From a virus (lineage: Duplodnaviria > Heunggongvirae > Uroviricota > Caudoviricetes), in IMG/VR virus record IMGVR_UViG_2648501186_000003, positions 1-55,284 of that record: a stretch of 55,284 nt of DNA, one strand, 5' to 3'. Shown here in pieces: positions 7,765 to 51,062 of the stretch. The first letter of the stretch is position 1; each line of letters starts with the position of its first letter. The notes beneath the pieces are model-generated. The model was not told where the DNA came from. It made no database searches and saw only the letters and a program-made list of their open reading frames with translations. The position numbers were made by a program, and so were the translations under genes.

Positions 7765-10700
7765 ATGAACAAGCTATCTATGGGTGTGTTTCGCTGTTCA
7801 AGTGTCAGCGAAATATTGAAATACATTAGGGCAATAACATCTCACCGAGCGCCGATTAAATACGGCGTGGAAAAGGTGGAAGGCAAAAGCTATGACCGAC
7901 TGCGCCGGGAGGCGAATCAGAAGGCGATAGATTTGCTTAATTCGCTGGTGGACGGCGCGACACTGACAGATGAACAGCGCCAGATCCTGGCCGGGTACAC
8001 TGGTGAAGGCGGCATTGGCGGGTCCGTCTCCGAATATTACACACCAAAGCCTATCGCTGAAGGTGTCTGGGAGATCATGAAGCTCTACGGCGCGGACGTA
8101 GGTAACACTCTGGAACCATCGGCGGGAACCGGCGTTTTTAATGAGACAAAACCGGTTGGTACGGTGATGACCGCGACTGAGATCAGCAGTGTTTCCGGTC
8201 GTATAAACCAGTTGTTACACCCGGAAGACAGCGTACAGATTTCCCCGTTCGAACAGCTGGCTATAAACACGCCTAACGATTCATTCGACCATGTTGTGGG
8301 TAACGTTCCGTTCGGCGGTCGTGATAACACACGCAACATCGATAAGCCTTACGCAGAAGAAACGGACATGGGGTCTTACTTCATGCTCCGCATGCTGGAC
8401 AAGATAAAACCTGGCGGATTCATGTGTGTGATTGTGCCGCCGTCCATTGTTTCAGGTTCAAACATGAAGCGGTTACGCCTGCGCTTATCCCGTAAAGCTG
8501 AATTTCTTGGCGCTCACCGCTTGCCTACCGGTACTTTTGACGCAAACGGGACCAGTACAGTCGTTGATGTGGTGCTGATGCGCAAACATCCGGCAGAGAT
8601 GGCTGAGAAAATCCCCCTGGTGGATGAAAGCACTCTCGAATCGGCAAATGTGCTTTGGCCAACGTTTATTTCTGGCAAGTGGTTTGAAAAGGACGGCCGC
8701 CGGTTTGTTCATGGCACCCAGGAAAAGGGCTTCCAGGGGCGTATTGAGGTTCGTGCCGACGGTCAGATTGATAACCAGGCTCTTAAAGCGAAGCTGATTC
8801 ATCGTTTCGAAAGCCGTATCGACTGGTCTTTGCTCGATATGGCTGAACCGTCACCGACCGCAGACGTTGTTGGTGAAGGGGAAATGCGCCTGATTAATGG
8901 CGTATGGCAAAAATATGCTGGTGGTCGCTGGATTGAAGCTGATGCCGGGAAGGAACTTAAGATCGATGCTGCCAGTTATGGCGCGGATAGCTGGGAGGCT
9001 CTTCAGCGTAACCTGACTACAACAGAAGGCCGTCTCGGCATGACATTTACCCAGATGGCAAATGTCCGCGATAAGTACACCACATCAATCAGCGACGATA
9101 TGGTGCAGCTGGTGGACTGGATTAACAGCCAGCCTGAAAAATACCGTGAACGCTTGTATCGCGGGGCGATGATTGGCCGGATGTTAATTGAATATCAGGA
9201 CATGAAGGCCGCCGGGCATAGTGCTGAACAAATCGAACAGCAGCGCCTTTCTCTGGTATCCCGTTTGCAGGCAGAGATTGACCGTTTTGGTAACCCCGGT
9301 CGCGGTCCGATAGCGAAATTGTCGGGGAGCGGTGCGCGCGCCTGGTTTGCTTTCCGTGGTGCGATTAAGCTGGATGGCACTATTTCTGACGAGCTGACAG
9401 GAAAGCTGGTTACGCATGATTCCAGCGCAAGTTATGACTCCACCAGCTATCAGGACACCCTGCGTTATCTCTATAGCGATCTCACCCGCGATCCAATCCA
9501 GCTCGATGATTTCCGCCTTGCGTTTACCGGCGAACTGCCAGCCAGTGATGAAGAGTTGCTTAATTTATTGGCCAGCACCCCTGGTATTGCGGTTTCACCG
9601 TATGGCGGGATTGTTCCGTTCGCCCGCGCCACCAGCGGCGACATTAACGAGATAGTGGCTCCAAAACAGGAATTCCTCGCCACACTCCCCGACGGTCCAG
9701 TAAAGAACAACGTCCTTAATCAGCTGGCAGCTATCGAAGAGAAGCGCATCAAGACGCCAGCAGAGAATATCCGGTTTAAGCTCAATAGCCGTTGGTTCGA
9801 CCGCTCCGTCATTCTGGAATTTTTGCAGGAAAACGGCTATCCGGATCTGCGCTATGTGCAGTCAGTGCAGCTGGAAGGCGACGAAATGGTTTCTGACACC
9901 TATCACGGTGGTGATGGTCTGTTCGTCGGGCACCGATACGGTGTCGTCCAGCGCAAGGATAAAGAAACAGGCGAGATCCGCTACGAGTGGGACCGTAAAT
10001 CGGGTGAAAACGCGACCGGGTTCCCGGCACAGCTGGAAAAGTATCTCAATGGTGCGCGTATCGGTGGCAAAGATAGCGCGACGGCGAACGGCTACCGCGA
10101 GCAGATGGCACTGCTTGAGGACCAGTTCAATAAGTGGATCAAGACGCACGATCGCTACGATGAGCTGGTTGCCAAATACAACGATGTGTTCAATAGCAAT
10201 ATCCCGTATGAACACTCTGGCGATCCGCTTGGGTTGAAGGGATTAAGCGGTAAGCGCCAGCCATTTGATTACCAGAATAGCGAGGTGCGCCGACTGTCCG
10301 AAGATGGGCGCGGCATCCTGGGCTTCGGCACCGGGCTGGGTAAAACCACGACCGCGCTGGCGCTTGAGGCGTTCAACTATGAGAACGGTCGCTCCACCCG
10401 TACTGCGTATGTAGTGCCTAAATCAGTGCTGGAAAACTGGTATTACGAAGCAAAAGAATTCCTGAGTGAAGAGGCATTCAGTAACTACCTGTTCGTCGGT
10501 CTTGATGTGCTGATGGATGGCGATCAGATTCGCCAGGTGCCGGTGCTCGATGAGAACGGTAAACCTGTTCTTGGTACTGATGGCACTCCAGTTATGCGCG
10601 ATGCTCTTAAGCTGGCAGATGAAGCCACTATCACGGCGCGGATGAATGCGATCCCGCACTCAAATTACCGTGCAGTCGTGTTTACCAAAGAACAATACGC

Positions 10701-13700
10701 CCGCATTCCGCTACGTGATGACACCGTAGATGAGCATGCACAGGATATGCTTTATGACTTCGTTGCTGCCGGGCGCGTAGCCAGCGCAATGGACTCCGAC
10801 TCCCACCGCAAAGAGGCCGCGCGTCGCCGGGTATTGTCGGAGTATTCAGATACCGGCACCGAAAAAGCAGAGAAGTATCCGTACTTTGAGGATATGGGCT
10901 TCGATAGTGTGATCGCTGACGAAGGTCACAACTACCGCAATAGCTATAAAAATGGTCGCGAAGCGTCACAACTGGCCTATCTGCCCACCAGCGCGGTGGC
11001 GCAATCGGCGCGAGATATGGCAATTAAAAACGCGTACCTGATGAAAAAGAATGGCGGGCGCGGGCCGGTTCTCCTGACTGCAACGCCAGTCGTTAACACC
11101 CCGATCGATGCATACAACATGCTTTCTCATGTTCTGCCGAAGGAATACTGGCAGAACATGGGGATCTACGGTCCTGATGACTTCGTTAAATTCTTCGGCA
11201 AGACCAGGCTGGAAACGGTACAGAAAATTAGCGGTGAAGTTGAAGAAAAAATGGCGCTGGTGGGCTTTGAAAACCTTGATGCGCTGCGCGGCATATTCCA
11301 TCGCTGGGTAACGCTTAAAACGGCGGAAGACGTTAAGGATACCGTGGAGATCCCGGAGCTGGACGAACACCAGCAGGATGCACCACTTACTGAAGAACAA
11401 CTGGCGGCGTATGAAGAATTGCGTCAGCAGGCGGAAGCGGCGGCCAAAGCCAACAATGGCGTAACGACCTCGGTCAATGAAGACGGCGTGATTGAGCACG
11501 AGAAAGACCGTCCGATCTTCTCAATAATCAGGGATATGGACCGCGTATGTACTGACATGGACCTGTACTATCGCCGGATCACCTATCGTTTCCTGCCGGA
11601 GTACGCCGATGCGGTGCAGCAGCTGGCGGACAGTTTGCCTAAACAAGCCACCAGCGAAGACGACGACAGTGATGATTCAATCACGCAGCAATCGCAATAC
11701 TCCCTGATAGATAAGGGCGAGTTTATTCAGTTGCAGGTTCCGGAAGCGTTCGAGCAGGAAGTGAATAAGCGCCTGGCCAGGTTTGGCATTGACGAACAGA
11801 CCGTAACTCACCCCGTTACGCCCAAATACGCGAAGCTGATCGCCGCGCTGAAGGAGTTTTTCCCGGAAGGTAAGCAAATCATCTTCACCGATGAAAAAAC
11901 GCAGCACCAGAAGCTCAAGCGCATTATCTGCAATGCTCTAAACCTTGAACCTTCAAAGGTGGGGATCCTGAATGCTCAGACGGTTGCCGAGGCAGGTAAA
12001 ACCGGTAAGAAACTGAAAGCGGTTAAACCGCCGAAAGAGCTACCGGATGAACCAACAGATGCACAGATAGCGAAATACAACGAGCAAATGGCTCTGTATG
12101 ACGCCTATATCGCGCAGCAAAATGAAATGTCGTTGGGCGGTCTGGAAAAGATTGCAGCCGACTTCCAGGAGGGCCGGACTCCGATCATCATCTGCAACAA
12201 AAAGGCAGAGGTGGGTATCAACCTGCATCGAGGAACGACTGACATCCATCATCTGACGTTGCCATGGACACCAGCCAGTATCGCACAGCGTAACGGTCGC
12301 GGTGCCCGAGTTGGTTCCAACCGTGCAAGCGTTCGCGTTCACTACTACTGCGGCAAGGGGTCTTTCGATGAATACCGACTGAAGACGCTGAAGCGTAAAG
12401 CAGGCTGGATCTCCGATATCCTCCGTTCAGATAAGTCAGAAATGGAGAACGCCGACGCCAACGATATGATCGAAATGCAGATGTATACCGCTAAGGATGA
12501 TGGCGAACGTCTGGCAATGATGCAGGTTCAAATGGATAAGGCGAAAGCCGCGCAACGCGCTCGCCAGAAAGAACAGGCTACTATCGACCTTCAGAACTAC
12601 ATCAAGGCGCAGCACGCAGCTGGCGAGGATGTGGAGGTACTTACCGCTGAATTAGAGCGAAGCAAAGCGGAACTTGAAAAGACCACCGCCGAGGTAGCTA
12701 AATTCAAACAGGCGGCAATGGCCAAGGCAGCGGATAACGCAGACTGGAAGGCCCGCTGGGGGAGTGTCCATCACACAGACCGTATGTTGTTAGCACAGTA
12801 TCGCGCGTCGTTGAAAAGCGCCATTCAGCGCAAGGCTAATATCTCTCAGGCCATCTCCCGCTATGAGAAATTATTGAACCGTACTCAGAAGGCCGCGACG
12901 GATATCAAACGCCTGCGCCCGCTGGTGGAGGATGCAATAAATAAAGGCATTCTGGATATTGATCCTGACATGGTTAACCATGCGAGTGAGTTCCTTGTTA
13001 TCGGCGATCGCTCATGGCGTGTAGGCCAATACTACGATTGTGCCGGTGATATCGTTCGCATTAAGTCGCTGGACTTCGACAGCCAGCGCGCAGACGTGGA
13101 GATCATCTTTACCTTCAAAGGCACCAAATCGGGTAACTGGGATGTGAAGACGCTGGATAAACAGGTTGATGTAACTCCTGATGAAGATGCTGTTATGCAG
13201 AAAATCAGTGGTGGCGTCTCCATCGCCGGGATTAACGACATCATTTCCTGTGACGATTTCTACCGTTTCCAGCAGCGCGGCATGATCAAAATCACTGACT
13301 CATACGGCGTTCAGACTACAGAGTCAGGCTATAGCATTGATTTTGTTGGTACCTATACGGACCCACTGAAGCATGCGGTTTACCCGGATCGCCGTGACGG
13401 CGCGCTGAAGTCGTCAATTGCAAAATGGGTGCTTGGTATGATGTCGGAAGGGAATAACCGCCAGATCCGTTCGGCAGAAACATTCCTGGTTGAATTGTTT
13501 GGCTCCAATTATGGCGATGTAATCGCGTCATACGGAGATACGCTATCCCCTGAAGCAATTCAGGAGAAAATAGTGGATGCGATCGCAAAAATGCCGGAGA
13601 AAACAAGCCAGGGGGCTACTCGTAACGGGGATTCTGAACTTGAAGTCACCAATGCCATTTTCGGTACCAATGAGTTCCGGGCGTCAGATTATGAGATCAC

Positions 13701-14532
13701 CACAGCACAGTTTGGCACCATTGGCATTTACAGCAATAAAGCCGAGATCAAGCAGGCAATGGACGCAGCAAGCGCGCGCATCGCAGCAGAACGGGAAGCC
13801 AATCTGAATCATGCAGTCGCCGCACTGACTCAATCGTGGGTAACAGCAATCAGGGAGGCCGCCACCACAGGGAAAATCACACCTGCAATTGCGGATGTCG
13901 TAAACGACGGCTCTAAATTTATGGATGCCTATCAAATGGATGCGGTGCAGTTGCCATCAGCCTATGGCCAACTCAGCTATCGCATGACCTACAACCTGGT
14001 ATCAATGTTTTCCGACCTTGCCATCCTTGGGCTGGTGGATCTTAACGAGGTTACGCCGGAATTGCTCAGCATGCGCAAGAATCATGTGGAGATATTGCAG
14101 AGAATTAACACGGTTCTTGCCGGGCGCACCGATGAAGAGAAACAGGCCGACGCTGATCGGATAAACCTGGCCCTTGGCAACATCACGGAGGAAGAAATTG
14201 CCGCCAGAAACGAGAAACAAGAAGAGTTATCATCAATACAGGGTGATGCCACCAGCATAGCTCAGTCTCTTGGTCTGAATTATCGCGTATCCACCGCCGA
14301 CCTGAAGATGATGTACGCACCGAAATTCGCCGCTGGCGAGGTATTTGGGCTTCAGGAAGCCTCAGGCATGAAAGGCGTTCTTTTCCGTGCGAAAGACGCA
14401 ATCAAGGCGAAATTCGGCGCTCGCTGGCTGCCAGCGAAGGCGAAGAACAGCGATTTCCCGGGTAACTGGTGGATTATCGAGACAAAACACAACGTGGCGG
14501 ACGTTCTGGCCGTCATCCAACAATACGCATAA
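7765..14532 (+). CDS. darB: DarB-like antirestriction protein (N-terminal methyltransferase region plus DEAD/DEAH helicase)
   Basis: 2255 aa; helicase Walker A LGFGTGLGKTT, DEGH box (VIADEGHNY) and a methyltransferase-like N-terminal region; size and position match P1 DarB. Confidence 0.8.
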   Translation: MNKLSMGVFRCSSVSEILKYIRAITSHRAPIKYGVEKVEGKSYDRLRREANQKAIDLLNSLVDGATLTDEQRQILAGYTGEGGIGGSVSEYYTPKPIAEGVWEIMKLYGADVGNTLEPSAGTGVFNETKPVGTVMTATEISSVSGRINQLLHPEDSVQISPFEQLAINTPNDSFDHVVGNVPFGGRDNTRNIDKPYAEETDMGSYFMLRMLDKIKPGGFMCVIVPPSIVSGSNMKRLRLRLSRKAEFLGAHRLPTGTFDANGTSTVVDVVLMRKHPAEMAEKIPLVDESTLESANVLWPTFISGKWFEKDGRRFVHGTQEKGFQGRIEVRADGQIDNQALKAKLIHRFESRIDWSLLDMAEPSPTADVVGEGEMRLINGVWQKYAGGRWIEADAGKELKIDAASYGADSWEALQRNLTTTEGRLGMTFTQMANVRDKYTTSISDDMVQLVDWINSQPEKYRERLYRGAMIGRMLIEYQDMKAAGHSAEQIEQQRLSLVSRLQAEIDRFGNPGRGPIAKLSGSGARAWFAFRGAIKLDGTISDELTGKLVTHDSSASYDSTSYQDTLRYLYSDLTRDPIQLDDFRLAFTGELPASDEELLNLLASTPGIAVSPYGGIVPFARATSGDINEIVAPKQEFLATLPDGPVKNNVLNQLAAIEEKRIKTPAENIRFKLNSRWFDRSVILEFLQENGYPDLRYVQSVQLEGDEMVSDTYHGGDGLFVGHRYGVVQRKDKETGEIRYEWDRKSGENATGFPAQLEKYLNGARIGGKDSATANGYREQMALLEDQFNKWIKTHDRYDELVAKYNDVFNSNIPYEHSGDPLGLKGLSGKRQPFDYQNSEVRRLSEDGRGILGFGTGLGKTTTALALEAFNYENGRSTRTAYVVPKSVLENWYYEAKEFLSEEAFSNYLFVGLDVLMDGDQIRQVPVLDENGKPVLGTDGTPVMRDALKLADEATITARMNAIPHSNYRAVVFTKEQYARIPLRDDTVDEHAQDMLYDFVAAGRVASAMDSDSHRKEAARRRVLSEYSDTGTEKAEKYPYFEDMGFDSVIADEGHNYRNSYKNGREASQLAYLPTSAVAQSARDMAIKNAYLMKKNGGRGPVLLTATPVVNTPIDAYNMLSHVLPKEYWQNMGIYGPDDFVKFFGKTRLETVQKISGEVEEKMALVGFENLDALRGIFHRWVTLKTAEDVKDTVEIPELDEHQQDAPLTEEQLAAYEELRQQAEAAAKANNGVTTSVNEDGVIEHEKDRPIFSIIRDMDRVCTDMDLYYRRITYRFLPEYADAVQQLADSLPKQATSEDDDSDDSITQQSQYSLIDKGEFIQLQVPEAFEQEVNKRLARFGIDEQTVTHPVTPKYAKLIAALKEFFPEGKQIIFTDEKTQHQKLKRIICNALNLEPSKVGILNAQTVAEAGKTGKKLKAVKPPKELPDEPTDAQIAKYNEQMALYDAYIAQQNEMSLGGLEKIAADFQEGRTPIIICNKKAEVGINLHRGTTDIHHLTLPWTPASIAQRNGRGARVGSNRASVRVHYYCGKGSFDEYRLKTLKRKAGWISDILRSDKSEMENADANDMIEMQMYTAKDDGERLAMMQVQMDKAKAAQRARQKEQATIDLQNYIKAQHAAGEDVEVLTAELERSKAELEKTTAEVAKFKQAAMAKAADNADWKARWGSVHHTDRMLLAQYRASLKSAIQRKANISQAISRYEKLLNRTQKAATDIKRLRPLVEDAINKGILDIDPDMVNHASEFLVIGDRSWRVGQYYDCAGDIVRIKSLDFDSQRADVEIIFTFKGTKSGNWDVKTLDKQVDVTPDEDAVMQKISGGVSIAGINDIISCDDFYRFQQRGMIKITDSYGVQTTESGYSIDFVGTYTDPLKHAVYPDRRDGALKSSIAKWVLGMMSEGNNRQIRSAETFLVELFGSNYGDVIASYGDTLSPEAIQEKIVDAIAKMPEKTSQGATRNGDSELEVTNAIFGTNEFRASDYEITTAQFGTIGIYSNKAEIKQAMDAASARIAAEREANLNHAVAALTQSWVTAIREAATTGKITPAIADVVNDGSKFMDAYQMDAVQLPSAYGQLSYRMTYNLVSMFSDLAILGLVDLNEVTPELLSMRKNHVEILQRINTVLAGRTDEEKQADADRINLALGNITEEEIAARNEKQEELSSIQGDATSIAQSLGLNYRVSTADLKMMYAPKFAAGEVFGLQEASGMKGVLFRAKDAIKAKFGARWLPAKAKNSDFPGNWWIIETKHNVADVLAVIQQYA

Positions 14533-14565: not shown

Positions 14566-15006
14566 ATGGCCACATTATCTGATACAATAAAACCGAATAA
14601 AACATATCTTGAGGCGGTGCTGCGTACGGCGTTGTTAGGAAAGACAGAAGACGAATACGTTGATTTCTTCCTGTCAGGGCTACGCGGGCGATTACTGAAA
14701 AATCCCCGCCTGTACCGCAGCTATGGTCCATACTGGCCGGAAATTAAAAAATTATTACTGGAGCGCGGTTATGGTAATTTCGGTCGTCTCGTTGACCGTG
14801 ACGTTCGCAAAATTTACCGTTATGACCGTCCGGCGCTGACGCTCATAGCCGCGACGCTCTACAGCCAGGAGCGTTTTGATAATGGTCAGATATACTCAGC
14901 CTGGCATTTACTGCCAGTGCCTGAAGAAGTTGACGACCAGGACTATGAGTTTGAGTCTTACGATTTGGAAGTTGAAGCCTTGGCACAGGCTGGAGAGAAA
15001 ACTTGA
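14566..15006 (+). CDS. Hypothetical protein (P1 ulx position)
   Basis: 146-aa ORF immediately after darB; named by synteny only. Confidence 0.45.
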   Translation: MATLSDTIKPNKTYLEAVLRTALLGKTEDEYVDFFLSGLRGRLLKNPRLYRSYGPYWPEIKKLLLERGYGNFGRLVDRDVRKIYRYDRPALTLIAATLYSQERFDNGQIYSAWHLLPVPEEVDDQDYEFESYDLEVEALAQAGEKT

Positions 15007-15251
15007 AAAAGCGATACTACACAGTAAAGCATGGGACGCTACGAGCATTACAAGAGTTTGCTGATAAGCATAACGTTGAAGTGCGCAGGGAAGGGGGAAG
15101 TAAAGCTCTGCGCATGTACCGTCCGGACGGGAAATGGCGTACAGTCGTCGATTTCAAAACAAACAGTGTTCCCCAGGGCGTCCGCGACCGGGCATTCGAA
15201 GAATGGGAGCAGATCATCATAGATAACGCATTGCTTCTGAATGCTGATTAA
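15003..15251 (+). CDS. Small basic protein (P1 lxc position; possible C1 co-repressor)
   Basis: 82-aa ORF coupled to the upstream ORF; named by synteny only. Confidence 0.4.
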   Translation: MKKRYYTVKHGTLRALQEFADKHNVEVRREGGSKALRMYRPDGKWRTVVDFKTNSVPQGVRDRAFEEWEQIIIDNALLLNAD

Positions 15252-15292
15252 GAACTCTCCGGCCTAGGGAGATTAGGCCGGAGATAAATATA

Positions 15293-16597
15293 CTATATAA
15301 ACTTAGATACAATATCGTGAATCTGTTGTAGCGGGATATCTTCCATCTCATTCTTAATAAGAGAGCGGTTAGATGCTGTCAGTGAAGGCCATTTTGTTTT
15401 CCAGGCTAGATATGCTAGCCATGAGTAGCCAGTTTCGTAAGGTTTATTCATACAAGTCATTGAGTGTTCAACCGCTTGTATGTATTTTTTCTCAAAGTTG
15501 GTTCCTTTTACTTCAAATAAACTACCAAAATAAATAAGCCATTTTGCAAGGTGTTCATACTGTTCCCATGCGCCAGGCTTTTTAGTAAGTTCTATTTTTT
15601 TATCTATTATATTACAAAAAACATTTAATACATTTTCATTATTCCAGCTATATCCAGATGATGAAATGGAGGAAATGATATGATAAAAAGAATCCTCTAG
15701 CTTCAAGAACTCTATTTTATACTCTCTTCCGTTTTTTATTACCGATTTGATTGAGTGCCTCAATTTGTCTTTTATTTTTTTTGCTTCTGGAATTTTATCG
15801 TTAAGTTTTCTAAAGAAATCAGATACCTCTGTTTTATCTATAACCCTAACCCCATAGCAGGAAAAATAGTAATCTTTAATAGGTTGCAATAGTTCCCCTC
15901 GGGAAACAAGGAAAATATTGGAGGACATTACGTTGTCCCGTGAAAATACCTTATATTCATTTATAATAGCCTTTAGGTTCGCGTCACTTAGAGAATAGCC
16001 AAGGATAACAATAGTGTTTTCATGTAGAACTGTGCTTAGTTTATTAGAAAAGTAAGAATTACCATTTATAAATCTGAAATAATCCTCGCTAGTAACAACC
16101 ATGTCTGATGGGGAGTCTATAGAACCGTGAACATGGTAGACTTTAACCTCACAATTATATTTTGGAATTGGCAGGCCGGGGGTGATTGTACAAGTTCGAT
16201 TCTCTCCAGCCAGCTTTTCTGCTAACTTGTCATAATTTGTCGTAATTACTTTAAATGTGTTTTCTTTGAAAAAGTCTTGAATATATTCAATTGATGGATC
16301 AAGTTCGATTGAGGCTATGATTTTCTCAATCTCTTGGTAAATATTTTTCCCCGAAAGTATAAGTTTTAGTGCAATAACCTGAGCAGCTTCTTCAAGGCTA
16401 AGGTCTTTTGCTTTTCCATCAGGAAATAATTCCTCTTTGAGTGAGTCACCATCCTTCAATAAACCGCACAGTTGCTCCAATAAAGATTGCCAACTTGGGG
16501 CTTTATCATCAGAAACAGCCTTTGAAAATCCAGTGCCTGTAAGAAAGCACAGCCTATGTGTAGCCGCTGCATAGGCAATTTCTATATACTCGCTCAT
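15293..16597 (-). CDS. SIR2-domain protein (sirtuin-like NADase, ThsA-type catalytic signatures)
   Basis: Motifs FLTGTGFS (Rossmann), TTNYD (N121) and HVHGS (H157); strongly AT-rich compared with neighbours. Confidence 0.7.
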   Translation of the reverse strand: MSEYIEIAYAAATHRLCFLTGTGFSKAVSDDKAPSWQSLLEQLCGLLKDGDSLKEELFPDGKAKDLSLEEAAQVIALKLILSGKNIYQEIEKIIASIELDPSIEYIQDFFKENTFKVITTNYDKLAEKLAGENRTCTITPGLPIPKYNCEVKVYHVHGSIDSPSDMVVTSEDYFRFINGNSYFSNKLSTVLHENTIVILGYSLSDANLKAIINEYKVFSRDNVMSSNIFLVSRGELLQPIKDYYFSCYGVRVIDKTEVSDFFRKLNDKIPEAKKIKDKLRHSIKSVIKNGREYKIEFLKLEDSFYHIISSISSSGYSWNNENVLNVFCNIIDKKIELTKKPGAWEQYEHLAKWLIYFGSLFEVKGTNFEKKYIQAVEHSMTCMNKPYETGYSWLAYLAWKTKWPSLTASNRSLIKNEMEDIPLQQIHDIVSKFI

Positions 16598-16653
16598 TAC
16601 TTACTCCATTTACTTATAGTTCTACAAAGAAGTATACCCTAATGCATTGACGT

Positions 16654-17295
16654 TTATAGATAATTTCCTTTTCCTGTTAATACTCCCTTAGGCACCTGTT
16701 TTTGTGCCAGCGTTTGGGTGCCGCGAATTATGTTAATCAGAGGGCTTAGTAACGATGGTTCCTGGCGTGCCTCAACTTCTCCAGCCATTGCCCTGATGTA
16801 GTCGGCGCTGGCAACGTTGTTGTATTCCGTCGCAAAGCAACATAGTAACGTCAGAACATGCTCTGTCGTTATTTCGCTCCAGTTGATGTTGAAAAATTCA
16901 TCGCCTTTTTTATCGTGTTCGGAATCGAAGATGCTTTGGTGGAGGATGTATTTGCCGGACTCCTTGCGCGGTAACTTGATCGCTTTCTGGCGTTCCAGCT
17001 CCTTGTAAATCTGCATTGCTTCAATCAGTACCGGCCTGCCGTTCATGAAGGGATCGCGCAACCTTACACGCTGGCCAACTCGACCAGTAATAAAGCTGTT
17101 TTCCTCTTCCACCAGCACGATAAAACCCTTTTCCTCTTTTTCTCGCAATTCGCGCAGCAGCTGGAGTTCCATGTCGCGGCGGCGTTCAGGGTAGCTGGTC
17201 CGCTCAGCCATTATCAGCTCGTTGTTGATCCATGCAGCAGTCATTGACGCCGGTTTGCCGACGCTCATCGAAACAACGCATATTTTCTTATCCAT
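16654..17295 (-). CDS. Hypothetical protein (213 aa), co-oriented immediately upstream of the SIR2 gene
   Basis: Start set at the ATG at 17295 (AGGGG Shine-Dalgarno sequence) rather than the track TTG at 17322; no family motif recognised. Confidence 0.5.
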   Translation of the reverse strand: MDKKICVVSMSVGKPASMTAAWINNELIMAERTSYPERRRDMELQLLRELREKEEKGFIVLVEEENSFITGRVGQRVRLRDPFMNGRPVLIEAMQIYKELERQKAIKLPRKESGKYILHQSIFDSEHDKKGDEFFNINWSEITTEHVLTLLCCFATEYNNVASADYIRAMAGEVEARQEPSLLSPLINIIRGTQTLAQKQVPKGVLTGKGNYL

Positions 17296-17554
17296 AGCGC
17301 CCCTACAAAAAAGAAAAGCCACCAGCGGCGGCTTAGCAATACAACTGAAGGTAGCGCCCGGTACTCAGACTGTGCCGTCCATGGAATATTTGAAAAGGGA
17401 TCCATCCGTACCGGGCGTGTGATGATTCTGACTGAAGTCACTTGTCAGTTGTCAATCATTTATCATTAAAAATAATATATTTATTAGTGCATACAAATAA
17501 GACACTAAGTGTGCACATTGCAACCTCAGAGAGGAAACATTCAACCAGCCTGTA

Positions 17555-17571: not shown

Positions 17572-17889
17572 GATTTTTTGGGGCGGAAATACTACCATTG
17601 TACGCCAGACTATTGATCTTCCTGTTGTTCAGGCTTATAGTTCCTACGTCGTAGCAAATTCTGCGACCGGGTTTGACAGCCTGAATGTACATGCGGACAA
17701 CCGCAGATATCCGCATATTGCGGTATTTTTGTGTCCGTAAAACCACGTTACGCCCGAATTATGGTGGGGCGTGATGGGGAGGCTTCGGCCTGCTGGTTTC
17801 ATGTACGCCAGTCTGTCAACCCCGTCACGTCCTGCCACCTGTTTGACAGCGGGTAGCAGGTTGTTAAACCTGTACATGAGGCCGTAACT

Positions 17890-18111
17890 ATGGTTAATGC
17901 CAATCCTTGCGCACACCCTGAATTTATCTGGCGCTTTTACTCCTGCCAGAAACGTCACTATCACTTCGTTATCGCACCAACAGAAGATGAGGCACGTTCT
18001 CAGCTTCCGGATGCTCCCTGTATTTTCTCTGCCCGCTTTTCTACCGATTTGCGCAATTCTCTCAGTTACTGGTGCCTCCCTGTTAACGCTTCTGCTCAGG
18101 AGGGGCTATGA
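17890..18111 (+). CDS. Icd-like small protein (73 aa), coupled to the downstream antirepressor
   Basis: Stop overlaps the antirepressor ATG (ATGA); a 73-aa paralog sits at 23960-24181. Confidence 0.5.
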   Translation: MVNANPCAHPEFIWRFYSCQKRHYHFVIAPTEDEARSQLPDAPCIFSARFSTDLRNSLSYWCLPVNASAQEGL

Positions 18112-19166
18112 GAACGTCATTAGTCACCCGTGAAGAGATGATCGAGGCAATTGAACAGCACACTGCCTGTATCAGTACCAGGGATATACCTGGCGTTATT
18201 GCCAACTACTTCATGATCACCAAACAACTTTACCGGAGAAAGGACAAAAACGCGGTTCACCGCATTCTGCTGTCTGATATCCGTGAATACCTGCTCGAAC
18301 AGGGGCATCTGAATTACGCAACCGTCGCAGCCGAAACACGCAAGGAGGCACACAGAATGAAAGCAAGCAAACCAGATGTTGTCGTTACAAAGCCTTTGAC
18401 AGCAACCACACCAGCAACGGCCATGGATGCTATCCCCAACACCGGAGACACAATCGACAGCCAGACGCTGTTAAAGATGGTCAATGAAGCGCGGAAATTA
18501 TGTAGCGAAAAACCAGTTCGCAATAATGATTTTATTGCCAGAGTTAAGGATGAACTGGATGGTGAGTACTACGAAATTTTCGTAGTGCAAAAATTAAACA
18601 ACACAACATCTGAAACTATCTCCATGACCTACAAACAAGCCCTGCGAGTTGCCGCGCGCGAGTCAAAAGCGGTCCGCCGTTCGCTGATCGACAAACTGGA
18701 GGAATTGCAGCAGGCTAGCACTGCTTCTCCAGTGATTCCCCAAACACTCCCCGAAGCTCTGCGCCTGGCTGCCGAGCTGGCTGAACAAAAGCAACTTCTG
18801 GAACAGAAAGCCCACCAGCTAAATCAGCAGCTGGTGGCCGCCGCTCCTAAAGTCGATTTTGCCGACCGGGTATCAGTAGCTAAAGGGATCCTGATTGGGA
18901 ATTTTGCAAAGGTTGTTGGACTTAAGCAAAACGCGCTGTTTGCCTGGTTACGGGAGAACGGCATCCTGATAGCGTCCGGTGGACGTAAAAATGTGCCGTT
19001 CCAGCAATACATCAACGCTGGGTATTTTTCTGTGAAAGAAGTGGTGCTGGATGATGAAGATGGCTATCAGATACGACTGACGCCCCAGTTAACGGGGAAA
19101 GGCCAGCAGTGGTTGACGCGTAAACTGCTCGATGCTGGCTTGTTAAAACCGGTGGCGGCTGAATGA
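17917..19166. repeat. Left arm of a roughly 1.2-kb inverted duplication (leader, icd-like and antirepressor ends)
   Basis: Near-identical to the reverse complement of about 22845-24153 at the N- and C-terminal coding parts; the central part is diverged. Confidence 0.7.
18108..19166 (+). CDS. Phage antirepressor-like protein with KilAC-type C-terminal domain (copy 1)
   Basis: C-terminal 150 aa are identical to the 372-aa paralog; the first ~75 aa are near-identical; the middle domain differs. Confidence 0.65.
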   Translation: MRTSLVTREEMIEAIEQHTACISTRDIPGVIANYFMITKQLYRRKDKNAVHRILLSDIREYLLEQGHLNYATVAAETRKEAHRMKASKPDVVVTKPLTATTPATAMDAIPNTGDTIDSQTLLKMVNEARKLCSEKPVRNNDFIARVKDELDGEYYEIFVVQKLNNTTSETISMTYKQALRVAARESKAVRRSLIDKLEELQQASTASPVIPQTLPEALRLAAELAEQKQLLEQKAHQLNQQLVAAAPKVDFADRVSVAKGILIGNFAKVVGLKQNALFAWLRENGILIASGGRKNVPFQQYINAGYFSVKEVVLDDEDGYQIRLTPQLTGKGQQWLTRKLLDAGLLKPVAAE

Positions 19167-22815: not shown

Positions 22816-22850
22816 ATGCCCGGCATCAACCGGGCATTCTTCCATTATTC
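22816..22850. terminator. Hairpin terminator between convergent c1 and antirepressor copy 2
   Basis: tgcccgg-catcaa-ccgggca followed by a T-rich stretch. Confidence 0.45.
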
Positions 22851-23963
22851 AGCCGCCACCGGTTTTAACAAGCCAGCATCGAGCAGTTTACGCGTCAGCC
22901 ACTGCTGGCCTTTACCCGTTAATTGAGGCGTCAACCGTATCTGGTAGCCATCTTCATCATCCAGCACCACTTCTTTCACCGTGAAATACCCCGCATTGAT
23001 GTACTGCTGGAACGGCACATTTTTACGTCCACCGGACGCTATCAGGATGCCGTTCTCCCGTAACCAGGCAAACAGCGCGTTTTGCTTAAGTCCAACAACC
23101 TTTGCAAAATTCCCAATCAGGATCCCTTTAGCTACTGATACCCGGTCGGCAAAATCGACCTTAGGAGCGGCGGCCACCAGCTGCTGATTTAGCTGGTGGG
23201 CTTTCTGTTCCAGAAGTTGCTTTTGTTCAGCCAGTTCGGCAGCCAGGCGTAGGGCTTCAGGAAGCGTCTGGGGGATTGCGATCGGTTGCTGTTCTTTTTG
23301 TCGGAAGTAGCTGTCTTCCAGTTTTTCAAAGAATGCCCATGCCTGATCGGTTTCGAGCATTTTAGCGTGGCGGGCTGCGCCGCGTTCTGTCCAGAGGGTG
23401 AGTGAGCGAACATTGCGAGCAATTTTTACAGAGTAGTTTAAAGCTACTCTGTGCTTCAACTCGCGCAATGATTCTCCTTCAACTTTGAAAAAGTGCTTCC
23501 CTTCAACAAAGCGTACTTTGTTCTCATGATGATTTTGGCGAATACGGATTGTTTCTGTCCCATACCCTCTAGCAAGAGTCTCGGTTGTCACTACACGCAC
23601 TCCCTGCCATTCCAGAACGGGAATTTCATCAGACTGATTCTGAACAACCACCAGCTCCGATTCCTGAACTGAAGGTGCATGAATTTTTTCTGATTTAACG
23701 TTAGTTGCTTTCATTCTGTGTGCCTCCTTGCGTGCTTCGGCTGCGGCGGTTGCGTAATTCAGATGACCCTGTTCGAGCAGGTATTCGCGGATATCAGACA
23801 ACAGGATACGGTGAACCGCGTTCTTGTCCTTTCTCCGGTAAAGTTGTTTGGTGATCATGAAGTAGTTGGCAATAACGCCTGGTATATCCCTGGTACTGAT
23901 ACAGGCAGTGTGCTGTTCAATTGCCTCGATCATCTCTTCACGGGTGACTAATGACGTTCTCAT
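22845..23963 (-). CDS. Phage antirepressor-like protein with Bro-N/ANT-type middle domain and KilAC C-terminal domain (copy 2)
   Basis: 372 aa; shares its N-terminal ~75 aa and C-terminal 150 aa with the copy at 18108-19166. Confidence 0.65.
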   Translation of the reverse strand: MRTSLVTREEMIEAIEQHTACISTRDIPGVIANYFMITKQLYRRKDKNAVHRILLSDIREYLLEQGHLNYATAAAEARKEAHRMKATNVKSEKIHAPSVQESELVVVQNQSDEIPVLEWQGVRVVTTETLARGYGTETIRIRQNHHENKVRFVEGKHFFKVEGESLRELKHRVALNYSVKIARNVRSLTLWTERGAARHAKMLETDQAWAFFEKLEDSYFRQKEQQPIAIPQTLPEALRLAAELAEQKQLLEQKAHQLNQQLVAAAPKVDFADRVSVAKGILIGNFAKVVGLKQNALFAWLRENGILIASGGRKNVPFQQYINAGYFTVKEVVLDDEDGYQIRLTPQLTGKGQQWLTRKLLDAGLLKPVAAE

Positions 23964-24153
23964 AGTCCCTCCTGAGCAGAAGCGTTAACAGGGAGGCACC
24001 AGTAACTGAGAGAATTGCGTGAATCAGTGGAAAAACGGGCAGAGAAAATACATGGGGCGTCAGGAAGCTGAGAGCGGGCCTCATCTTCTGTTGGTGCAAT
24101 AACGAAGTGATAGTGACGTTTTTGGCAGGAGTAAAAGCGCCAGATAAATTCAG
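22845..24153. repeat. Right arm of the inverted duplication
   Basis: Reverse complement matches 17917-19166 at both ends. Confidence 0.7.
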
Positions 24154-24181
24154 GATGAGTTGGGGTAGGGATAGTAGCCAT
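23960..24181 (-). CDS. Icd-like small protein (73 aa), coupled to antirepressor copy 2
   Basis: Residues 10-73 are near-identical to the 17890-18111 ORF; ATGA overlap with the antirepressor start. Confidence 0.5.
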   Translation of the reverse strand: MATIPTPTHPEFIWRFYSCQKRHYHFVIAPTEDEARSQLPDAPCIFSARFSTDSRNSLSYWCLPVNASAQEGL

Positions 24182-24500
24182 ATTGGCAGCCTCCTTAGAC
24201 GTTGGTATGTAACCACCGCAGAAGAGACCAATCTTGCTGGCGGTGGACTGTACGGAGTTGGCCTTACTGGCGTCCAAGGTAACCAGCCTACCCGAAGGTA
24301 GCCCCATACAGCCCACCATTGTAGAGGTGTGCGTGTACGCCGATACAAAAAAAAGACGCGAGCGGCGTCTGTATCGCCTTAGACTTAAGCGGGAGGCCAA
24401 TCCCGGCACCCGTTTTAATGAGGTGCCTGATAAGCATAAACCGAAAATGCCTCAAGGCGCAAGAGGTCAGGCTCAATGTAACATCGGTAGTTAAAAAACA

Positions 24501-49393: not shown

Positions 49394-49469
49394 TGGTGGC
49401 CCCTACCGGACTTGAACCGGTGACCGTGCGATTATGAGTCGCCAGCTCTAACCACTGAGCTAAAGGGCC
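49394..49469 (-). tRNA. tRNA with CAT anticodon (tRNA-Ile2 lysidine-type or Met), CCA encoded
   Basis: Cloverleaf folded by hand: 7-bp acceptor, D-arm GCTCAGTGGTTAGAGC, anticodon loop CTCATAA, T-arm CCGGTTCAAGTCCGG; resembles E. coli ileX as remembered. Confidence 0.8.
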
Positions 49470-49472
49470 GGA

Positions 49473-49580
49473 TTACTGTTTCCTGAGTGCTTCTATGACG
49501 CCAGCAATACCGCCTACAACTATGCCAGCAATGACAACGAGAACAATTGGATGCTTGTCAGCAAAATCCCAGAAGCCCAT
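49473..49580 (-). CDS. Tiny membrane peptide (35 aa), P1 tciC position
   Basis: ATG overlaps the upstream stop (TGATG); MGFWDFADKHPIVLVVIAGIVVGGIAGVIEALRKQ. Confidence 0.45.
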   Translation of the reverse strand: MGFWDFADKHPIVLVVIAGIVVGGIAGVIEALRKQ

Positions 49581-49744
49581 CACTGATCCTTAGAAGCTGT
49601 TTTTAATATCGGCCATACCAATGTTACAGCTACTGCCACCAACGCCCCGTCCGATAAAACTGACAGGATTGTGCTGGTGAAATCCACCAGCACGGACAGC
49701 AAGAGAAAACCAATGGCGATTGCGATACGTGCCTTGCTTGCCAT
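49580..49744 (-). CDS. Small membrane protein (54 aa), P1 tciB position
   Basis: ATG overlaps the tciA stop (TAATG); hydrophobic. Confidence 0.45.
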   Translation of the reverse strand: MASKARIAIAIGFLLLSVLVDFTSTILSVLSDGALVAVAVTLVWPILKTASKDQ

Positions 49745-50178
49745 TACAGATAATCTTCCACACGAAGACCTAAACGACGGCCTACTTCTTCCAGTACTTT
49801 GTGTTCTGCTGGCTCGATTTCACCGTCCGCTTCTGCAATTGTCAGCATGTTAACGAATACTTCTTCCGCTTCTTTTGGATCGTTTTTGATATCTTCAATT
49901 TCGCGAAGGATATTCATGCGACCAACACGGAAGCCAGCTTCCAGTTGCTCGGTAAAGCGGGTAATTGTTGCAGTAATTTCGTTACCAAAATGACTAAGAC
50001 GCGGATTAGAGCGGACAAGCTGATCAAGTTTCGCTGTTTCTTCTTTTTCGATTTCACCATCAGCGGCAGACACCAACAAACAGCCACCGATAATGGCCTC
50101 CATCAGATCGCGATTCTCAACTTTTTTCAGCTCTACTTTTGCAGAAGCGACTTTCTTGCCGAACAATTTACCGAACAT
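49744..50178 (-). CDS. tciA: TerB-like protein
   Basis: 144 aa with two TerB-like repeats (SAADGEIEKEE / AEADGEIEPAE). Confidence 0.65.
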   Translation of the reverse strand: MFGKLFGKKVASAKVELKKVENRDLMEAIIGGCLLVSAADGEIEKEETAKLDQLVRSNPRLSHFGNEITATITRFTEQLEAGFRVGRMNILREIEDIKNDPKEAEEVFVNMLTIAEADGEIEPAEHKVLEEVGRRLGLRVEDYL

Positions 50179-50319
50179 TGGTTATCCCTCAATAAAAGTG
50201 ACATATTTATTAGATTGCGGTACCGAGTGCCTCCCGGTGACGTTAACCAGTTAATAATTAACGCCGGAATGTTTAACCATTAAGGAGGATTGTTTTAACT
50301 GTTCCGCGTGCGCTTAGCC

Positions 50320-50396
50320 GCATTCACCGCAACGGAAAGAGCATTCCTGGTGGACCTGTAGATTGGGATATGAACCCGTTACAGGAGAATGCTCTT
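50320..50396. repeat. Copy 1 of a repeated hairpin element with a conserved 25-nt core (gtagattgggatatgaacccgttac)
   Basis: 10-bp stem (aagagcattc / gaatgctctt) encloses the core; shares the gcattcacc prefix with copy 2. Confidence 0.5.
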
Positions 50397-50580
50397 ACCT
50401 GTTACGTGCTCCGTTTCGTGGAGCTAACGGCGGGTGATCGGGCCGCACCAGACTGGACTTATTTCAGCGTTATGCTCATGCCAGAGAATCAAACTGTGAT
50501 GGTCGGTGCTGAACTCCGACACAGGGTTGTAGCAAGCCCCGCAAAGCGCGCACTACTGTAGTTGCGGCACATCAGCCTGT

Positions 50581-50680
50581 GCATTCACCACAATGTTGAG
50601 AACACTGGTTGTCACGCTGCAACGCAACATTTATTCGTAGATTGGGATATGACCCCGTTACGCCAGTGTTCTCAACGTTG
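50581..50680. repeat. Copy 2 of the repeated hairpin element (core gtagattgggatatgaccccgttac)
   Basis: 18-bp stem (caatgttgagaacactgg / ccagtgttctcaacgttg) encloses the core. Confidence 0.5.
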
Positions 50681-50827
50681 TAGTGCCGGTTACGGTTCCG
50701 GCCAGGCCTCTTCCTCAACGGGGTGTTCTCCATACGGACTACCGTTTATTGGTCGTTCCTGCGGTTTATGTTGTGAAGCCAGATGCTTATCTTCTGGTTG
50801 CTTCAAAGAGCTGCACTTCCTCACAAC

Positions 50828-50901
50828 GGTAAGGGTACTTCGTAGGGATTCGAACCCTCTGCCAAGCTCGGCGATCTCCGACGTCGCAAAATACCCTTAC
50901 C
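50828..50901 (-). ncRNA. tRNA-like element (canonical T-arm GGGTTCGAATCCC inside a 10-bp terminal stem); possible degenerate tRNA or processing hairpin
   Basis: Perfect 10-bp terminal inverted repeat GGTAAGGGTA/TACCCTTACC; no clean D or anticodon arm found by hand. Confidence 0.3.
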
Positions 50902-50909
50902 TGTTGTGT

Positions 50910-50984
50910 TGGTGCGGTTAACGGACTCGAACCGCTGACATCCTGCTTACAAGGCAGGCGCTCTACCAACTGAGCTAAACCGGC
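50910..50984 (-). tRNA. tRNA-Thr (anticodon TGT) with an imperfect acceptor stem
   Basis: D-arm GCTCAGTTGGTAGAGC, anticodon stem-loop CCTGC-CTTGTAA-GCAGG, T-arm GGTTCGAGTCC; the 3' acceptor strand appears one nt short. Confidence 0.65.
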
Positions 50985-50986
50985 AT

Positions 50987-51062
50987 TGGCGATGGTGGAT
51001 GGATTTGAACCATCGACCCGTTGATTAACAGTCAACTGCTCTAACCGCTGAGCTACACCATC
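50987..51062 (-). tRNA. tRNA-Asn (anticodon GTT)
   Basis: Acceptor GATGGTG/CACCATC, anticodon loop CTGTTAA, T-arm GATGGTTCAAATCCATC, CCA encoded; lies 2 nt upstream of tRNA-Thr. Confidence 0.8.

Follow-up and report, generated by a model that had tools for sequence, protein, structure and literature searches.

That an SIR2-domain NAD+-hydrolyzing enzyme (NADase) can protect bacteria from phages by abortive infection is already a known principle. In DSR2, the trigger is the phage tail tube protein (PMC11850899, PMC10973363), and this is bound by a C-terminal domain built as an alpha-solenoid (PMC11850899). A similar single-gene logic, an N-terminal effector followed by a C-terminal regulatory or sensor domain, is found in CapRelSJ46, whose trigger is a phage capsid protein (PMC9712102). 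Here, we deal with a gene on the IMG/VR record IMGVR_UViG_2648501186_000003, a stretch of 55,284 nucleotides (the window) that comes from a P1-like phage-plasmid and is 100% identical at the DNA level to the Escherichia coli plasmid CP122667.1, a 66-kb shortened P1-like element. The gene lies on the minus strand (15293-16597, 434 aa plus the stop codon), encodes a SIR2-family protein, and is the sole gene of an imported cassette. We think that it probably is a single-gene anti-phage defense carried as cargo by the phage-plasmid, in which an immune-type SIR2 NADase is joined to a C-terminal solenoid, because its SIR2 identity, its cassette of one gene, the hotspot in which it sits, the genomic settings of its homologues, the lack of any conserved neighbor, and the fast evolution of its C-terminal domain all point in this direction. 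What is new is this architectural variant, SIR2 plus solenoid.

Let us begin with the enzyme. The 434-aa minus-strand reading frame was confirmed by the listing of open reading frames (ORFs) of the window, and its copy on CP122667.1, annotated as 'SIR2 family protein', is identical. Its residues 1-255 (15833-16597, minus strand) form an N-terminal SIR2 domain of the Rossmann type, with a GTG loop at aa 20-24, N121 and D123, and H157. A first-pass annotation, made from the letters of the window alone, had picked out the motifs FLTGTGFS, TTNYD with N121, and HVHGS with H157; these are indeed found where it placed them, the first at aa 18-25, and all three are invariant in 33 homologues, as are N121, D123 and H157 individually. 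In alignments with DSR2 and ThsA, TTNYD and HVHG fall on the catalytic Asn and His of these enzymes. The Pfam family SIR2_2 (PF13289) matches aa 117-253 with an E-value of 2.1e-23 and 83.4 bits against a cut-off of 24.5, and an AlphaFold2 (AF2) model, built with 33 homologues in the alignment, has a mean predicted local distance difference test score of 85 and consists of the SIR2 Rossmann domain and an all-helical C-terminal domain. When the SIR2 domain was compared by Foldseek, DSR2 and ThsA ranked first, and the comparison of folds places it closest to the immune SIR2 NADases KomC, ThsA, Avs5, and DSR2. Profile searches and structure prediction thus agree with the annotation's proposal of an SIR2 fold with intact catalytic residues, and the protein belongs to the SIR2_2 or immune-type SIR2 ('SIRim') superfamily, with PF13289 above the gathering score, the Rossmann fold, and both the catalytic Asn and His. 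PADLOC models that match are PDC-S25, ThsA, LmuA, and Dsr2, and PHROG 7567 matches over the full length. RefSeq/PGAP automatically names the protein 'SIR2 family NAD-dependent protein deacylase'. Neither a match to the canonical sirtuin family PF02146 nor the cysteine pairs of a Cys4 zinc-ribbon was found in the protein, its fold is that of immune NADases, and its genomic context points the same way; for these reasons the name is probably misleading or wrong, and the protein is probably an immune NADase instead.

The remaining 179 residues (aa 256-434; 15296-15832, minus strand), to which no motif had been assigned at first, are predicted to form a HEAT/ARM-like alpha-solenoid, only about four hairpins long in the AF2 model, and are a putative sensor or regulatory domain. 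A profile of this domain was searched against 1.84 billion representative proteins and matched 98 of them. Eight intact matches that were sampled (346-480 aa) all have SIR2_2 at the N-terminus and the domain at the C-terminal end, while the two weakest matches, glycoside-hydrolase/lectin proteins of 683 and 820 aa, are unrelated. By this search, the HEAT-like solenoid seems to be found only within the SIR2_2 plus solenoid architecture. Mean identity is 44% in the C-terminal domain versus 63% in the enzyme domain, so that the former is the faster-evolving part, with a set of invariant Trp and Tyr residues retained.

Is the gene on its own, or is it one half of a pair? The first-pass annotation had proposed a two-gene module consisting of the SIR2 gene and an unassigned 213-aa ORF, lying 56 nt upstream in the same orientation. 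Orientation and distance are correct, but the ORF is not an unassigned one: it is mat (minus strand, 16654 to 17295 or 17322), whose product has 94.5% identity with P1 Mat over 220 aa, matches PHROG 1837 from end to end, and is called 'maturation control protein' in RefSeq. It can be read as 222 aa from GTG 17322 or as 213 aa from ATG 17295. The 5′ region of mat is the same as in P1 base for base, including the C1 operator Omat and the promoters Pmat/LPmat, except for a deletion of one nucleotide in a G run at about 17303. Because this deletion shifts the 37-aa N-terminal extension annotated in P1 out of frame, the start of Mat is fixed at ATG 17295. Just 5′ of this ATG, on the minus strand at 17316-17334 and within what is annotated as mat coding sequence in P1, there is a terminator-like hairpin followed by a T-run. 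As will be seen below, mat adjoins every type of cargo known at this site, and no Mat-like protein is encoded beside the SIR2 gene in any of 59 homologous loci. Mat is a backbone neighbor outside the system, and the proposed module has to be given up. The annotation had itself remarked that the pair would not hold if the 213-aa ORF proved to belong to the conserved backbone of P1, with Mat as an example, leaving the SIR2 gene by itself, and this is what was found.

The borders of the imported piece are sharp. When the window was aligned at its junctions with P1, SJ46, JL22, and Ro157c2YLVW, similarity was found to stop exactly at the stop codon of lxc (15251), and near-identity resumes within mat, about 64 nt before its 3′ end; together with a GC trough at 15200-16600, this defines a variable cassette from 15252 to about 16717, in which GC content is 35% compared with about 50% around it. 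The SIR2 ORF itself has 35.2% GC versus 48-52% in mat, ulx/lxc, and darB, which confirms that it is much more AT-rich than its neighbors, and the acquisition of this gene by horizontal transfer, suggested before, is supported. Apart from the SIR2 gene, the cassette contains only a 56-nt leader, a promoter-like element, and a GC-rich hairpin. The leader, which is the spacer between mat and the SIR2 gene (16598-16653, minus strand), has a Shine-Dalgarno sequence GGAG at 16604-16607, and a scan of it for terminators found none. The hairpin (15256-15284), with a stem of 11 bp, stands between the convergent stop codons of lxc and the SIR2 gene; its free energy is -20.8 kcal/mol (z = -4.75 against shuffled sequences), it is absent from the same position in other P1-like variants, and it is likely a terminator belonging to the cassette.

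Position is another part of the argument. The cassette lies between darB/ulx/lxc on one side and c8/cre/cra on the other, which is, as the first-pass annotation had recognized, the site of res/mod in P1. There, P1 carries EcoPI res/mod plus IS5. The cargo of SJ46 is a 373-aa RelA/SpoT protein, identified as CapRelSJ46 by the match of all seven residues named in PMC9712102 and by a full-length match to PADLOC PDC-S33; its gene (NC_031129.1 56389-57510; 1290-2411 in our locus L011) has the same strand and position as the SIR2 gene. JL22 has a 316-aa PIN_12 protein with a partial match to PDC-S34 (L012, 1314-2264), Ro157c2YLVW an AraC-type regulator together with an EAL-domain protein (L010, 1291-2865), and in RCS47 the slot between lxc and mat is essentially empty. 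The AraC/EAL pair suggests that some of the cargo is other than defense. The junction of lxc and mat is a hotspot of exchangeable defense cargo in P1-like phage-plasmids, and mat borders EcoPI, CapRelSJ46, the PIN protein, and the AraC/EAL pair alike. Among 699 PLSDB plasmids carrying ulx-lxc, about 66 have the SIR2 allele of the window at ≥93% identity, and about 57 have a second allele, of 435 aa and 57% identical as a protein, so that about 123 of these P1-like plasmids carry either of the two. The second allele (NZ_CP027575.1 80207-81514; L014, 2279-3586) shares slot and strand with the first, and both the 3′-terminal part of mat and the 56-nt leader that precede it are nearly identical to those of the window despite the low identity of the proteins. 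The first allele was found in 70 of 5426 complete E. coli genomes, with 71 of its 72 copies on plasmids.

Outside P1-like elements, full-length homologues (431-460 aa, 44-61% identical) are distributed patchily over Gamma-, Beta-, and Alphaproteobacteria and a few other lineages. In E. coli, one is located at the end of a prophage, adjoining the integrase. In Klebsiella, another lies in a P4-like satellite, flanked by the integrase on one side and capsid-related genes on the other, an interval of the hotspot type described in PMC9122126. A Pseudomonas homologue adjoins Gabija-like genes, one in Vibrio is near GmrSD, and one in Halomonas is in an island with HNH, HsdR-like, and DUF87 genes. When 124 ORFs within two genes of about 50 homologues were scanned with PADLOC, qualitatively and with no control set, type I restriction-modification, PD-T7-5, dGTPase, mads, NERD plus UvrD, PDC-S05, and a TIR protein of PDC-S66 were recognized. 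These neighborhoods rich in defense genes, together with the slot, support the SIR2 gene as a plausible defense gene. DNA and protein searches revealed no close relatives in sequenced phages, and what appeared were weak matches of the SIR2 core in Streptococcus and Mycolicibacterium phages.

A conserved partner gene elsewhere was also considered and was ruled out by clustering the 546 flanking ORFs from the 59 homologous loci. No neighbor family occurs in more than five of the 59, and none keeps a fixed position; the exception to this variability is synteny among close relatives in Pseudomonas, Proteus, Rodentibacter, and Acinetobacter. The unit is therefore a single gene. Two observations on neighbors are to be recorded here. 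In three Acinetobacter genomes, a co-oriented ORF of about 870 aa without a PADLOC match lies 45-50 nt upstream of the SIR2 homologue (L069, 2295-4928; L070, 2308-4923; L076, 2320-4923), the homologues themselves being 44% identical and about 455 aa long. It could be a lineage-specific partner or mere synteny. And a TIR-domain protein, matching PDC-S66 in full and partly ThsB-like, is encoded within two genes of the SIR2 gene in three of the 59 loci (L023, 6406-7308; L045, 3459-4208; and the +2 ORF of L031), at varying positions and on varying strands.

How can the gene be expressed in a lysogen? Since mat is repressed by C1 and expressed late in P1, a standing defense needs a promoter of its own. 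A candidate sigma-70 promoter, TTAACA-N16-TATAAA, is found on the minus strand at 16653-16680, where it overlaps the stop codon of mat. Both SIR2 alleles keep this element. Ahead of CapRelSJ46, the corresponding site of SJ46 reads TTAACA-N16-TATAAT, while in P1 and JL22, with cargo that is not co-oriented, it is degenerate (TTTAAC and TTTAAA). Such a pattern of conservation suggests that the SIR2 gene may have its own promoter.

As for what the protein does, NADase activity, a trigger, expression in the lysogen, and an abortive outcome are what we infer, and the logic of the trigger is modeled on that of DSR2 and of CapRelSJ46. In the lysogen, the SIR2 protein would be made in an inactive state, its transcript starting at a weak promoter that overlaps the stop codon of mat and possibly arising in addition by read-through from mat. 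The solenoid, likely a receptor or autoinhibitory module, would bind a molecule made by another phage upon its infection, most likely a protein, and this binding would free or assemble the SIR2 domains. Because filaments or helical assemblies are what was seen in the closest SIR2 structures, those of ThsA, KomC, Avs5, and FAM118B, oligomerization induced by the trigger is a reasonable guess for the activation step. N121 and H157 would then hydrolyze NAD+, and the infected cell would no longer support growth of the phage. Such an abortive infection would spare the clonal population that carries the phage-plasmid.

Several points weigh against this reading. The solenoid is not shared with other types of effectors, although such sharing is the usual signature of a sensor module, and a purely structural role could account for its invariant aromatic residues. 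The enrichment of defense genes around the homologues is given without comparison with a control set, PADLOC 2.0 and NCBIfam recognize only the SIR2 core, and in the literature searched we found no description of the SIR2 plus solenoid family, of this gene, or of any SIR2 protein in P1-like elements. The sole single-gene SIR2_2 protein tested from the satellite hotspot, pFR88 (Rousset et al.), is outside the seven validated systems there, its sequence being different from that of the SIR2 protein of the window. Expression is the weakest link of all. The proposed promoter is an imperfect match to the consensus that was not reported by the promoter scanner, which rejected it solely for A as the last base of the -10 element, and with mat under C1 and late in P1, it is again by inference that we place expression of the SIR2 gene in the lysogen.

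What else might the gene be for? It might be transcribed with mat from the C1-repressed, late promoter and act during lytic growth in the life cycle of the phage or against host defenses, possibly by destroying NAD+ or a signal molecule, or by ADP-ribosylation or deacylation of a target. The intact Omat and Pmat/LPmat, the absence of a terminator between mat and the SIR2 gene, the anti-restriction functions of the neighbors darB and ulx, and the deacylase name in RefSeq are all in line with such a role. We nevertheless regard it as unlikely, since the family occurs also in chromosomal defense islands, at prophage ends, and in the hotspot of P4-like satellites with no link to late genes, since bona fide defenses, EcoPI and CapRelSJ46, use the same slot, and since the name was given automatically to a protein that has no canonical sirtuin Pfam match and groups by its fold with immune NADases. 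A variant of this idea starts from the same arrangement: as the C1 operator and late promoter of mat are retained, with no terminator ahead of the SIR2 gene, the NADase could be made mainly on derepression. Its role would then lie in lytic growth, where it would shut out rival phages or degrade immune signals that the host derives from NAD, and not in a standing defense of the lysogen. We would give it slightly less credit still. A toxin for plasmid addiction or growth control, or a decaying passenger gene without function, is a poorer candidate. In its favor, a constitutively active NADase would be toxic, and the source plasmid is a shortened element; the cassette, however, has no adjacent ORF resembling an antitoxin, all catalytic residues are kept, and the ORF is intact and conserved at 93-100% in the roughly 66 plasmids and the 70 complete E. 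coli genomes.

The two remaining possibilities concern partners. Could the SIR2 protein be a Thoeris-like effector, triggered by a small-molecule signal from a TIR protein or another enzyme encoded elsewhere? Structurally, its SIR2 domain is nearest to those of two signal-responsive proteins, ThsA and KomC, the ThsA models of PADLOC match with E-values of 1e-15 to 1e-17, and a TIR protein of the PDC-S66/ThsB-like type is the neighbor in the three loci mentioned. Those TIR genes, however, differ in position and strand, their homologue is absent from the window, and the ThsA models cover the SIR2 part only (profile positions 107-230), with an HEAT-like solenoid where a SLOG/STALD or Macro domain would be needed; the idea appears improbable to us. 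Even more so is a two-gene system with Mat as a sensor, regulator, or antitoxin, for which we see hardly any chance. It is true that the two genes are co-oriented and closely spaced with no terminator between them, and that some 21 codons at the end of mat are unlike those of P1 and travel with the SIR2 cassette. Against this stand the near-identity of Mat to its P1 counterpart, its equal association with all the other cargo, and its absence beside the SIR2 homologues elsewhere. A single-gene defense is thus the reading that we prefer.

On the rest of the element, the following may be added. At lower coordinates than the cassette and on the plus strand are darB (7765-14532), ulx (14566-15006), and lxc (15003-15251). 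On the other side, a c4/icd/ant module on the plus strand is placed between mat and c8, and c8, cre, and cra follow beyond it on the minus strand. In fact, the window has two immI-like modules, at 17635-19166 (plus strand) and 22845-24426 (minus strand), each with a c4 antisense RNA, a1/b1 targets or an isrK-like element, an icd-like gene, and a KilAC antirepressor gene. One of them takes the place of ref between mat and c8, and the other directly follows c1. The two share about 95% identity in icd and in the 3′ portion of ant, but they cannot be aligned in the c4 region and in the middle of ant, a divergence that suggests two different c4 specificities. Three tRNA genes (Met-CAT, Thr-TGT, and Asn-GTT) are located within 49394-51062 on the minus strand.

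Why should one care about a gene of this size? The protein would represent a family of compact, self-contained SIR2 immune proteins, patchy across Proteobacteria and a few other phyla, which the two annotation libraries used, PADLOC 2.0 and NCBIfam, see through the SIR2 core alone. The slot in which it was found in P1-like elements already houses two textbook systems, EcoPI and CapRelSJ46. Elements of this kind are frequent in E. coli and Salmonella, and what they carry therefore bears on the efficacy of phage therapy and of transduction. Moreover, the two diverged alleles sharing slot and leader are a natural pair for mapping what a small sensor domain recognizes.

It remains to place the protein among the described systems. 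Judged from its sequence, it is not a full-length member of any that has been named. Canonical sirtuin deacylases are distinguished by PF02146 and the Cys4 zinc-ribbon, both missing here, and no AbiH family appears among the Pfam and PADLOC matches at E ≤ 0.1. For Lamassu, the LmuA model matches only aa 20-219, and the cassette has no SMC gene. Pfam finds nothing but SIR2_2 in the protein, and there is no partner gene, which separates it from SPARSA (short pAgo with SIR2) and Avs5, with their adjacent or fused Argonaute or STAND NTPase. SIR2-HerA (Nezha) and PD-T7-2 would call for a HerA-type (DUF87) ORF, and none exists between lxc and mat; PADLOC gives no match to PD-T7-2, and HerA is not a recurrent neighbor among the homologues. 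KomC of Kongming works with KomA and KomB, and such partners are lacking here. ThsA has a SLOG/STALD ligand-binding domain and depends on ThsB, both of which are missing; with an HEAT-like solenoid in place of SLOG/STALD or Macro, no adjacent ThsB, no TIR gene in the cassette, and no hit in the window when the TIR neighbors of the homologues were used in tblastn, Thoeris was ruled out, and the label 'Thoeris-like' that had been tentatively attached to the locus is to be dropped.

Closer cases are four. PDC-S25, likewise a one-gene SIR2 candidate, is the best PADLOC match (E=4.9e-24), although this is limited to the SIR2 core (profile positions 127-278 of 517, and 121-278 over the models of 517-528 positions taken together). 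EcoPI is a defense expressed by the lysogen from the same slot in P1, but it is a type III restriction-modification system of two genes on the opposite strand, unrelated in mechanism. CapRelSJ46 shares with the SIR2 gene the identical slot and strand, a start downstream of mat, an end about 40 nt from the lxc stop codon, a similar promoter-like element overlapping the mat stop codon, and the arrangement of effector and sensor within one polypeptide; the proteins themselves are unrelated, CapRel being an experimentally validated toxSAS enzyme that pyrophosphorylates tRNAs and not an NADase. DSR1 and DSR2, finally, are also single polypeptides without a partner gene, with an N-terminal SIR2 domain bearing the same Asn and His motifs and with C-terminal helical repeats. 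The DSRs are much larger (about 1000-1260 aa), so that the 434-aa protein is less than half their size and does not match the DSR2 architecture of SIR2, MID, and C-terminal domain; the NCBIfam models give 30.6 bits for Dsr2 and 21.2 bits for Dsr1, where the cut-off is 1400, with about 100 residues matching, and the helical domain showed no sequence similarity to that of DSR2. By analogy, the SIR2 protein of the window would function most like DSR1 and DSR2, without being a member of either.

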